Assembly (NCBI GenBank): GCA_951406725.2
Contig: OX597822.1
Span: 68,014,001-68,078,000, forward strand
DNA from: Octopus vulgaris
Taxonomy: Eukaryota
Length of the DNA stretch: 64,000 nucleotides
Reading direction: 5' to 3'
Made by a program: the position numbers and the translations under genes. This document shows, piece by piece, positions 545 to 56,921 of this stretch (the stretch's first letter is position 1; every line of letters starts with the position of its first letter). Below the pieces are notes generated by a model, which was not told where the DNA came from, ran no database searches, and saw only the letters and a program-made list of their open reading frames with translations.

Positions 545-1762
545 ATTCAGTAGTCGTATTTTTATCACGTGCTTTCACTGCACTACCGAGCGCGGTTCTA
601 TGTAACTTGGATATGTGTAGTGATTCGTTGTTATGGTCTTATTTTCCCTGCATTGAAATTGTTTTACGTAGGATGTGTGCGGTGCCTAATAGTGCATATT
701 TTCTGTATGTTTTATATACTTGTTGGTCATGGTGTTTTTGTTATGTATTCGTCTGAATGTTTTTTTATCATACCTAACACACCTACTATGATAGAAATTG
801 TTTCTGTTTTTAAGCTCGACATTGGATTTATCTCTATTTTGAGACCTTTGTATTTTGAAAGTTTCTCTGTTTCTTTTAAAGAAACATTGTCATCTGTTGG
901 TATTGATACATCGATCAGAAAGCATTATTTTTCTTGGTGATCTCTGACAACTATGTCCGGTTTAATTTCTCTATCTGTGTGTATTGCCATATGCCAGAGT
1001 ATTGTTGCTTTTTCACTCTCTGTGAACTTTTCTAGCATGTGCTTATACCATCTTTTTTCCGTTGCTATTCCATAGTGTTGGCATAGTTTCCAGTGTATAT
1101 AGGTCCCAACTCTGTTGTGTCTCTGAATATATTCCTTCTTAGCCAGGACTGGACAGCCAGAGACAATGTGATTTATTGTTTCTTCTCCATCGCCACATAT
1201 TTTGCAGTTACTTGCATTTCTTTTCATTATATGTCTTTGGTGATTTCTGATGGGAAGGCTTCGATCTTGAGTTGCAATTAAAAATCCTTCAGTCTCTGCT
1301 TTAAGTCCTGAGCTACTCAGCATTTGTTGGGCTTTTGCTTTGTCTATTTCTTTTCTGTTTTGTTGCTATCGTTTTATCATCATCCGTTGCAGTTCCAGTT
1401 TTAGTTTGGATTTCAGTTGTTTCACAGCTTTTGTTGTTTTTCTTTTATCATCATAATTGTTAGGTACGATGACTTCTTTTTTGTGTTTGTTAGCTTCCTT
1501 AAAGACTGGAAACAGTTTTTTGTTTTGTTCGTGTTTTATGATTATTAGTTTTCCTTGCTTCTGAAGTAGGCATTTATGTAGTCCTATGGTAGTTACTATG
1601 TAATAGTTTTCTAGCTGTATAAGGCCTCTACCACCTTCGATACGTTGTATATATCGCCGTTCTATGTCAGATTTTGGGTGGTGCGTCCTAAGTCCTAAAT
1701 CCTATTATTCTTGTTTTCCAGTCTATTTTGATTAGTTCATTTAGAGTCCAGTTATTAATATT
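545..1762 (-). mobile_element. 5'-truncated, frameshifted R4/Dong-clade (RLE-type) non-LTR retrotransposon
   Basis: Minus-strand peptides: NWTLNELIKIDWKTR...HHPKSDIERRYIQRIEGGRGLIQLE (RT C-terminus), GLKAETEGFLIATQD, CKICGDGEETINHIVSGC (CCHC knuckle), RHNRV, PDIVV (restriction-like endonuclease). Both ends abut (TAA/TGA)n microsatellite. Confidence 0.9.
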
Positions 1763-27718: not shown

Positions 27719-27958
27719 TGTATGTATGTATGTATGTATGTATGTATGTATGTATGTATGTATGTATGTATGTATAAAATTCTATAATCATAAACATAAT
27801 TATAATCAGAGTTTAGCCAAATTACTTCATTACATACCGAAATTTAGAAATAGCTGTTAAATACTAATCTACTACCATAAGATATCTCCCAGACAGCAAT
27901 AATCTCGACTTACACAGGCAAGGAGAAAAAAAATAACGAATCCACCCGGTTTTGATTA

Positions 27959-28286: not shown

Positions 28287-28394
28287 TTCGGCAGAAGAAA
28301 AGATGTACAGATAATCGTGTATTTTTAGCTCTATTTCCCGGTTTGCATCAACAAAACTATATATTTACAAGATGAGATTATATATATTTTCACG

Positions 28395-28429
28395 ATTCCA
28401 CGTTTCGAGCGAAGCTCTTCGTCAGAAAT
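28395..28429 (-). ncRNA. Minimal hammerhead motif, probably inactive (GUG at the cleavage triplet)
   Basis: Minus strand attt-CTGACGA-A-GAGC-ttc-GCTC-GAAAC-GTG-gaat. Confidence 0.5.
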
Positions 28430-53485: not shown

Positions 53486-53726
53486 TATTTATATATATTT
53501 ATATATATGTGTACAAGGCTGTATTTTTCAAAATGGAGGCGAACACCTTTTTCCATGTGATCGACTTGAAAAATTATTAAGACGCTAGGATATTTTCCTA
53601 CTTTATTAACCTGAAACTAGTGGTAGCCTCAATTCACAAATAAAGAAGTTATATCTACCAATGTAGTGTTGAGCACTCATTTTCATCCTTCGACACACAC
53701 ACACACGCACACACACACACACACAC

Positions 53727-53793
<67 letters not shown>

Positions 53794-54383
53794 GATTGAT
53801 TGATTGATTTATATTACATAGCCACATACATATTCATACATATATGCATATGTGCGCATGCCTGCATTAACACGAAAGAACTTGAAAAGAAAGACAGAAA
53901 AAAGAGTACTCAATACCAGCTGTAGAGTTATATTCATTGGTTGCAGAATATGATCGCTATATCATTACATTTTGCCAACACTGGGTCAATATATAAACGA
54001 GCAGGTTTAAGTTATATAATCTGCTTTACAAGAATAGAATTTGTAAATTTGTGATGAATTCTGCAAATATGATTGTGAAAAATACTCGTGGGATTAGACA
54101 AGAAAACTAATCGATATTATTTACATAGAGAAAATAGAAACATTCTGAAAATAAGTAAAAATGGAGTAGCATATTTAACATCATTCGCATCTTTGTGCAT
54201 ACACAAGCGCATGCGTAGAGATGCGGAGACTTATATACATATATACGCATGTGCATGTGAGTGTAAGACTTACGAATACTCGTGCCTTATGTGTGTGCAC
54301 GTGAGTGTGTGTTTGTGTGTGTGTGTGTATGCATACACACACATACATGCGGATGTAGAGAAGTAGACCTACATATGTATGCA

Positions 54384-54421
<38 letters not shown>

Positions 54422-54638
54422 CATATATACACACACACACAATTTTTATACATTTTTATATACATGGGCATATATTTAGATGTTCAGGTGAGAATAAATT
54501 CGAGAACAGGGATACATAACGCGTAGAAAATAAAGAAACATGCAGCATACATATACACACAAACATATATATATCCTTTTACTTTTTTCAGTTCACTGAC
54601 TGGAGCCATGCTGGAGCACCGCCTTAATGTAGGTTATT

Positions 54639-54678
<40 letters not shown>

Positions 54679-54914
54679 CAATTGAGGATAAAATCTTTAA
54701 AAGAAATTATCAGTAGTCAGCGTGAAAAACCTCGTAAGAGAAAAAATCCGTACATTCTTCCTCTTTGAAAATATTCTTTTATATTATATTGAGGGTACTA
54801 CTATTCATAGATACCAACACGCTAAGAGGGACCAATGCGGTCAAAACTACTAAAAATAAACAAAATTTTAGCGAATGCAAAACTTCAAAACACATCATTT
54901 TAAAAAAGAATTCA

Positions 54915-54978
54915 GTTACATATCACATGTGATTTCGCATTTAATGCAGAATATGTATTTCATGTTCGTCAGTGCAAC
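54915..54978 (-). ncRNA. Type I hammerhead ribozyme, copy 1
   Basis: Same fold as copy 2 with one extra mismatch in distal stem II; predicted cleavage between 54921 and 54920. Confidence 0.65.
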
Positions 54979-55409
54979 AAACTCAAGAAATATAAGAAAA
55001 AACATAACATTACAAACTCGATAGCCAACCGTAGAATTCGTCGTAGCATGTACGAATGTCTATCCTTACATATCTATGAAAATGGCGGGCTTTTTCGCAA
55101 TGCATTTGGTAAAAATTGCCTAGTCGGAATAAAAATTCAGTATTGAACTATTCCGGTGAAAAATATAAATTAACAATTGAGGATAAAATCTTTAAAAGAA
55201 ATTATCAGTAGTCAGCGTGAAAAACCTCGTAAGAGAAAAAATCCGTAAATTCTTCCTCTTTGAAAATATTCATTTATATTATATTGAGGGTACTACTATT
55301 CGTAGATACCAACACGCTAAGAGGGACCAATGCGGTCAAAACTACTAAAAATAAACAAAATTTTACCGAATGCAAAACTTCAAAACACATCTTTTTAAAA
55401 AAGAATTCA

Positions 55410-55473
55410 GTTACATATCACATGTGATTTCGCATTTAATGCAGAATATGCATTTCATGTTCGTCAGTGCAAC
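55410..55473 (-). ncRNA. Type I hammerhead ribozyme, copy 2
   Basis: Minus strand GTTGCA-CTGACGA-acatgaAATGCAtattcTGCATTaaatgc-GAA-ATCACATGTGAT-A^TGTAAC; predicted cleavage between 55416 and 55415. Confidence 0.7.
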
Positions 55474-55645
55474 AAACTCAAGAAATATAAGAAAAAACAT
55501 AACATTACAAATCGATAGCCAACCGTAGAATTCGTCGTAGCATGTACGAATGTTTATCCTTACATATCTATGAAAATGGCGGGCTTTTTCGCAATGCATT
55601 TCGGTAACAAAATGCCTAGTCGGAATAAAAATACCATCCCGAAAT

Positions 55646-55697
<52 letters not shown>

Positions 55698-56921
55698 GTA
55701 AATGACTTACATTTATTTATGTATATACATAAACAGATACATATTAATGCAAACACACATTTTTACATGTACATACACAACCACTTATACACACATACGA
55801 AGATGTCCACAATATATTCACAACATGCAGATACCACAGCATGTATATGTGTGTTACACAGATACCAACTCGTATCGATATACAATATATGCGTGTATAC
55901 GTGTGTTAAGCAAATAATGATAAGAACTCCTCAGAAACAGTTCATAAACTAGAAAATCTGATGCAACATTTCAGTGACGCTGTACTCTCATAAGTCATAT
56001 TATGTATATCAATTAGATACATAATTAGGCAAAAAGGTTTATCGTTCGGCATGAAGCTTTAAGTTTTGGTCATTCTATTTAATTCACTGAATTCTTTTTA
56101 AGATGTAAGCATTTTGTCAGTTAGACAAAATGATATGGTTAAGCGTGATCCAGAATGAATCAAGCTATACTACACGTGTGGACGGTTGTTCCTCGGTGAA
56201 GTTTAAAATGCTCTGATAAAGCAGTCGAAACGCTAACAAAGTAGTGCTAACAAACAAATGATTATGATGGTAGATTCACGTCTTAAAGTTATGGTCTGTT
56301 AGCTCAATATATAACTTCGAGGCACAAGAGTTGTTTAAATGCGCTATAGCATCGTAAACTAAGGTCTCCTAGTCTTCTGAATGCAGTTGCCATCTAAGAG
56401 AGAGTTATCAGGATTAGCAAAGTTACAGTTTGGTGCAGGATTTGAATTCGAGACAAGCATTGGAACATCTGATAGAAATTACGAAGTTTTTGTATGCTGT
56501 GTAGCTAACTTTTAGAACATCTACACTGAAGATACAGCTCTGGGAAATAGCAGGACATTAATCTGAAGAACTATTTTATTAATTTAGATTTGCAGTCAAT
56601 TTGAAGGCAGAATTATCGTAATTTTATCGCTATTTTTGTTTTGTTTTGTTCATTTCTTTTAGATTATTTTTTACCCAGGAGTCATTTTCAAGCAACAGAA
56701 GAGATTGTACTGATATCGGATTCGTTTGTTGTAATGTTAACGAAATCCAGAGCTTAGCAGTAAAGAGGTTAACAATGAACGATTTTCAAAAGTTAGCGAC
56801 ACCAAACTGAAAATACACAAAAATATTTGTCATCATAGCCACAAAACCATTCTAATACTTTTATTGTATTGTACCAAAACGGAGGAGGGACATCTCGTTT
56901 AACAATCTAGTAATGATTCTA

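Follow-up and report, generated by a model that had tools for sequence, protein, structure and literature searches.

Retrozymes and Penelope-like elements

Which enzyme moves the retrozymes of animals? Penelope-like elements have been proposed as the helper (PMC7229834), on the grounds of co-occurrence and of kinship with their terminal repeats, and the retrozymes of Xenopus are related to the terminal repeats of Penelope, the pLTRs (10.64898/2026.07.22.740005). According to the available part of one review, no conserved motif points to the helper (PMC7761336). Insertions of Penelope-like elements are described as partly tandem, one arm being inverted and truncated, with a 30-40 bp tail at one end (10.1101/2021.04.23.441226, PMC3846280). 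The purified Penelope protein of the anole cuts and extends both strands of AT-rich DNA; two internal starts define the tail, and cleavage by the ribozyme is not needed (PMC11167929). In the literature searched, no cephalopod retrozyme was found, and the words 'ribozyme' and 'hammerhead' are absent from the available text of an octopus repeat annotation (PMC13282606); the family described here may already be catalogued.

The locus in question lies in a stretch of 64,000 nucleotides of Octopus vulgaris DNA (contig OX597822.1), referred to here as the window. With a probability of roughly 0.78, judged from sequence comparisons, it belongs to a real, young family of non-LTR retrozymes, whose RNA probably serves as a circular template for a Penelope-type enzyme that inserts the copies into (TA)n tracts. 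An earlier note on this DNA had proposed a candidate retrozyme, and that proposal has gained support: the element is multi-copy, tandem and non-coding, with a conserved and covarying hammerhead and a structured sense strand.

Layout of the locus

The features are as follows, with positions counted along the window and unit position 1 being the base directly 3' of the predicted cut.

54675..55632, minus strand: whole insertion of the putative retrozyme, about 958 bp, made of unit 280-495, then 1-495, then 1-246
54921..55415, minus strand: predicted cut-to-cut monomer of 495 nt, with 31% G+C, a longest sense ORF of 38 aa and a circular fold at z -3.55
55410..55473, minus strand: type I hammerhead, copy 1, predicted cut 55416/55415
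54915..54978, minus strand: type I hammerhead, copy 2, predicted cut 54921/54920
54675..54694, minus strand: 'long' 3' end motif TTTTATCCTCAATTGTT, the end of this insertion at (TA)n and putative start of reverse transcription
54776..54797, minus strand: 'short' 3' end motif CCCTCAATATAAT, lying about 100 nt 5' of the long one
54642..54675, no strand: (TA)17 target tract adjoining the long 3' end
55652..55696, no strand: (TA)22 target tract, parted from the retrozyme by 19 bases
55633..55651, plus strand: 19-nt short 3' end of another family, B2, head to head with the truncated 5' end of the retrozyme

Counted from the cut, the insert amounts to 1.94 laps of the unit, and the overlapping parts of its laps are identical in 452 of 464 columns and differ in 12. 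The earlier note had seen two near-identical 495-bp units between (TA)n tracts. The predicted cuts do fall 495 nt apart, at the positions listed, but the insert is not two whole units, and although (TA)17 adjoins its lower end, the upper tract is separated from it by the B2 piece. B2 is a different hammerhead-bearing, Penelope-like family whose end has 244 exact matches in the genome, and its junction with the retrozyme falls in an A-rich stretch common to both sides. The short motif occurs a second time in the insertion, at about 55271-55292, and serves as terminus in other copies of the family. Tandem Repeats Finder output for the window does not contain the 495-bp repeat. By its sequence, the locus is one ordinary, 5'-truncated copy among hundreds; with two predicted hammerheads it could act as a source.

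The predicted hammerhead

As the earlier note had described, each copy holds the parts of a full type I hammerhead on the minus strand: stem I GTTGCA/TGTAAC, the core CTGACGA, a stem II with a 2x2 internal loop, GAAA, ATCACATGTGAT and the triplet AUA. Position 10.1-11.1 is A·C in both. Copy 2 has an extra change at 54956, with one upper stem II pair broken; the copy 1 form is the commonest hammerhead among the loci examined (71 of 182 matches, overlapping loci being counted twice). A loose core pattern gives 13 matches in the window against 2.87 expected; a model search of the window is circular because its first hammerhead is in the model.

Do general tools recognise the motif? An Rfam search (release 15) of 53500-56800, the kind of check that the earlier note had suggested, gave 45 matches at E values of 5 or less, none of them a hammerhead. 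The motif resembles the Rfam hammerhead families in the conserved core CUGANGA...GAAA...UH and the three helices, and differs from them in its long interrupted stem II and the A·C closing position. For pieces of 76 nt the predicted fold does not surpass shuffles (z -0.11 and 0.03) and is not a hammerhead; that of a 111-nt piece is. In isolated 64-mers the hammerhead is not the minimum-energy fold (-9.6 vs -10.0 and -6.5 vs -8.4), nor is it part of the minimum-energy fold of the circle. Given the Rfam miss and short local folds that do not surpass shuffles, the case for the hammerhead rests on comparison. Elsewhere in the window, a third hammerhead core lies at 28388-28425 (minus strand); its stem II is short, it is of the minimal Penelope type, and it is unrelated to the 495-nt unit.

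What does the comparison say? Among the matches listed for a ribozyme 22-mer, 99 of 100 carry A at 10.1 (the pattern fixes the remaining 22-mer), so A·C is the state of the family and not decay at this locus. The earlier note was right that both copies have A·C, and its worry about reduced activity is partly answered by this norm. Sister subfamilies, 70-88% alike, give 262 matches, and about 83 of the 100 listed (by eye) have G at 10.1, the rest U or A; they combine G-C or U·U at 10.1-11.1 with compensatory changes in stem II. A U·U at the base of helix II is known from the weakly active axolotl motif HHR_Amex2 (PMC7229834), and measured activity for A·C at 10.1-11.1 was not found in the available texts of the literature searched. 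In a set of 22 hammerheads, chosen from 39 distinct forms in subfamilies 70-100% alike and so made of related rows, the core varies at N7 only, pairing holds in 90.9% of cells as against 15-43% in slid controls, and three stem II pairs are changed on both sides. Two of five covariation measures do not beat shuffles (492/500 and 500/500), which, together with the relatedness of the rows, makes covariation support and not proof. Conservation of the fold among genomic copies, on which the earlier note had let its proposal stand or fall, is seen both in the kept core and in the covarying stem II.

Four helix III pairs occur in all 22 rows, helix III being part of the pattern by which those rows were chosen. 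The loop varies between subfamilies, so the perfect palindrome marks the young subfamily only. On its own the palindrome is predicted to form a duplex (-15.8 kcal/mol) and no stable hairpin; a single molecule can form the four helix III pairs by itself. In these models, cleavage as a dimer is possible and not required, and the statement that a palindromic stem III favours dimer cleavage has to be softened. In the available texts, most invertebrate type I hammerheads cut as monomers (PMC7761336), and eight of nine Xenopus retrozyme dimers showed no cutting in vitro (10.64898/2026.07.22.740005).

Family size and properties of the monomer

The 20-mer at unit 118-137 has 798 exact matches in the genome and the 22-mer of the ribozyme 5' half has 146, with 0 for each reversed control; these are motif matches, not insertion counts, and the ribozyme 22-mer leaves out those members, half of the family, that have U at N7 (63 T against 63 C at that position). 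A search of the octopus genome with the monomer gave 1,726 candidates, and the 40 that were scored, on many contigs, are 96-100% identical. The hundreds of dispersed copies, with tandem laps at many other loci, bear out the copy number and tandem arrays that the earlier note had proposed to look for. Natural monomers, 29 of them distinct, measure 494-500 nt, and in all 29 the sense circle folds better than the antisense one (-101 to -123 vs -74 to -88 kcal/mol). For the circular monomer of the locus, predicted to be 63% paired, 0 of 60 shuffles fold as low. The longest antisense ORF of the unit is 49 aa, and an LTR-plus-core layout was not seen among 109 mapped places. By these features the family is young, dispersed, non-coding and bears a predicted hammerhead.

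Is the unit transcribed? Parts of it are listed in 24 sequencing runs, none recorded as RNA, which speaks neither for nor against expression; the four compared are contigs, from which ends, strand and level are not readable. One contig of 526 bases spans the whole unit and is self-closing, in a run that is only guessed to be RNA and with a joint that tandem DNA would equally give. Transcription of the whole unit by Polymerase III is unlikely, since runs of U are Polymerase III terminators and the unit has eight runs of five or six U. Parts of the unit also occur in runs under seven organism codes, with close copies in the two further ones compared, and the family may predate or cross species.

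Anatomy of the insertions

How do copies of this family enter the genome? The 109 distinct places mapped comprise best matches, ribozyme-pattern matches and 59 chosen for their positions on the first contigs; two of the places hold the same insertion, in a duplicated segment of a single contig. Two sites serve as 3' end, a short one at unit 141-144 and a long one at unit 246-253, about 100 nt from each other. Of 174 such ends 170 abut (TA)4; a target-site duplication is not readable, the ends lying inside (TA)n. Head-to-head inverted insertions with two arms make up 72 of the places and single arms 37. The inverted class pairs a long with a short end in 60 cases and two short ends in none, 11 having an odd or broken arm; the sole apparent long+long pair is two separate insertions. 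Arms longer than one full unit run on into the same unit, up to 1213 nt, and 50 of 99 position-sampled arms cross the cut site, so the template must have included that site.

Compared at 23 shared variable columns, the laps of one arm are discordant in 14 of 494 comparisons and opposite arms in 13 of 426, about 3%, as against 25.1% between loci at the same diagnostic columns. Each insertion therefore copied one haplotype, and by these sequences the source is one molecule or one source locus. Could the inverted arms come from fold-back copying? Symmetric junctions at 17 of 51 clean two-armed loci are compatible with it; at 16 of the 51 neither arm is contained in the other, so that two starts are needed, and fold-back fails there as sole origin. 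A mutation scar at the cut site was not seen in any of 136 arms, so the DNA does not prove cutting and religation of the template; the same laps would come from an uncut multimer. The 25 nt that follow the cut hold 15 of 65 arm stops, where the background is 9.6% (p 0.001); this excess, noticed post hoc in one bin of 20 that also contains short palindromes, is a weak hint of cut templates.

Mobilisation in trans, as proposed in the earlier note, is supported, and the insertion shapes narrow the type of helper to a Penelope-like enzyme. In the proposed mechanism, a minus-sense transcript of a tandem source copy would be cut at each predicted hammerhead to release 495-nt monomers, and a host ligase would close the monomer into a circle. 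A Penelope-type reverse transcriptase-endonuclease would nick both strands of a TA tract, and reverse transcription would start inside the RNA from two primers, the long site taking one and the short site the other. Extension would carry each cDNA backwards across the cut site, through as many as two laps or even more, until it stopped at a variable point; joining of the pair of cDNAs to each other, or of a single cDNA to the target, would follow. At the locus itself, the long-site arm would have run 1.94 laps before its far end met the 19-nt piece of B2.

Related lineages and candidate helpers

Which element of the octopus could supply the enzyme? The same genome holds several Penelope-type families and contains intact Penelope-type ORFs. 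One Penelope-type family has many open frames of 781 codons and a tail of about 40 nt, and looks recently active. Family B, a sister of B2, is abundant and Penelope-like (6,310 matches of its degenerate end 20-mer); it has reverse transcriptase and GIY-YIG frames, with domain matches below Pfam cut-offs, and a variant hammerhead, and its two ends lie about 58 nt apart. The tails of the inspected Penelope-type families are about 36-58 nt by eye, not 100. The GIY-YIG search scored 150 of 6,136 candidates, inspected 30 loci and extended 16 places; neither the 495-nt unit nor its end motifs are present in B, B2 or the inspected GIY-YIG loci. The 19-nt piece at the locus is, for now, not accepted as proof that B2 is the helper, this being the sole such direct join among the loci screened; B2 copies look older, and tiny B2 pieces also occur alone.

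The end motifs lead further. The long-end motif finds a hammerhead repeat of 545-560 nt in long tandem arrays (3,083 motif matches), which has U·U at 10.1-11.1, follows the same two-end rule and is more abundant than the 495-nt retrozyme; a variant hammerhead repeat measures about 563 nt. A lineage of 469 nt has G-C at 10.1-11.1 and 1,033 motif matches and is distantly like the 495-nt unit, and a further hammerhead repeat lineage has 957 matches. In all these lineages, aligned by eye, the short end follows CCC and the long end TTTTAYCCT, about 100 nt apart. The sequences thus indicate that three further hammerhead repeat lineages, four in all, share the end motifs; none was seen joined to an ORF. 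In the window, about 27790-27870 (minus strand) resembles by eye the short-end region of the 957-match lineage and lies beside simple repeats. The window also has two short frames at 925-1701 (minus strand), presumably the end of a LINE-type retrotransposon ORF.

Does one enzyme serve all these repeats? A tentative idea, which we hold to be doubtful, is that the same dimer of a Penelope-type enzyme starts copying twice on one retrozyme RNA circle, once at each of two fixed sites 100 nt apart, and that at least four divergent lineages parasitise the same helper through shared start motifs. If both parts held, the motifs would be a cis-signal for retrozyme mobilisation, which the available part of a review says is lacking (PMC7761336), and twin priming would explain how Penelope insertions come to have a tail on one side only.

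Alternative explanations

Could the same family and the same type of helper do without circles altogether? The template would then be an uncut multimeric transcript, the hammerhead slow, with its A·C at the base of stem II, or idle in copying, and circles rare or absent. Such a route has a precedent, as hammerhead mutants of the anole element left insertion unaffected and uncut RNA was the main substrate (PMC11167929, as available); the missing scar at the cut site agrees with it, and homogeneous tandem arrays would also yield one haplotype per insertion. On the other hand, subfamilies only about 70% identical still keep the core and stems of the hammerhead, and arms need templates of more than one unit, whereas two cut sites per arm were found in only 6 of 59 position-sampled places and three in none; the excess of stops after the cut, weak and post hoc, points the same way. 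We regard the uncut multimer as unlikely, while giving it real weight beside the circle, which is the reading preferred here.

It is improbable by a wide measure that the unit is instead the pLTR of an autonomous Penelope-like element, its tandem copies being the truncated ends of that element. Every feature of the insertions is Penelope-like, to be sure, and in Xenopus retrozymes are related to pLTRs (10.64898/2026.07.22.740005). However, arms that extend past one full unit continue into the same unit, and the 5' flanks of the 109 places, inspected by eye, are TA tracts, inverted arms or unshared sequence. Two Penelope-type ORFs match 16 of 255 loci, a comparison covering part of the family, and by coordinates none continues an arm; the hammerhead, moreover, is full-sized and not of the minimal pLTR type. 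As for a local tandem duplication or an assembly artefact with a chance hammerhead-like motif, which the Rfam miss and the unremarkable local folds might have suggested, its probability is negligible. The earlier note had named an artefact as fatal to its proposal; we judge this refuted by the hundreds of dispersed copies, the tandem laps at many other loci, the 12 columns at which the two laps here differ and the hammerhead covariation.

Comparison with known systems

The kind of element is already known; three things were not found in the available texts of the literature searched, namely the rule of paired ends, the single haplotype per insertion and the end motifs common to several lineages. 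A protein-free element with a Penelope insertion signature and two putative start sites bears on who moves animal retrozymes; with its 495-nt RNA, work in vitro could address helper identity, twin priming and whether the template is a circle or a multimer.

How does the family compare with the metazoan non-LTR retrozymes of coral, mussel and axolotl, as far as they are described in the available parts of PMC7229834, PMC7761336 and 10.64898/2026.07.22.740005? It shares with them tandem units that code for no protein and carry one type I hammerhead apiece, low G+C, a predicted self-paired circle, many copies and the presence of Penelope-like elements in the same genome, and a mismatch at the base of helix II is also known there (the U·U of HHR_Amex2; PMC7229834). 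Its unit of 495 nt is longer than the 150-450 bp first reported and within the 51-972 bp of the preprint (10.64898/2026.07.22.740005). The family here consists mostly of short dispersed copies; fixed paired 3' ends, inverted arms and TA targeting were not found described for these retrozymes in the same texts. Cleavage and circles have been demonstrated there, whereas here they are predicted.

Set beside the endonuclease-bearing Penelope-like elements (PMC11167929, 10.1101/2021.04.23.441226, PMC3846280, PMC4209133, each as available), the insertions have much in common: partial tandems, 5' truncation, a head-to-head inverted arm, a tail at one end, two internal starts of reverse transcription (here predicted) with a hammerhead upstream of them, and AT-rich or microsatellite targets. 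Unlike those elements, the family here is without a reverse transcriptase or GIY-YIG ORF. Its tail is about 100 nt as against 30-40, with putative starts about 143 and 246 nt after the cut, and its predicted hammerhead is full-sized, with a helix III of four to five pairs, where that of the Penelope-like elements is absent or very short.
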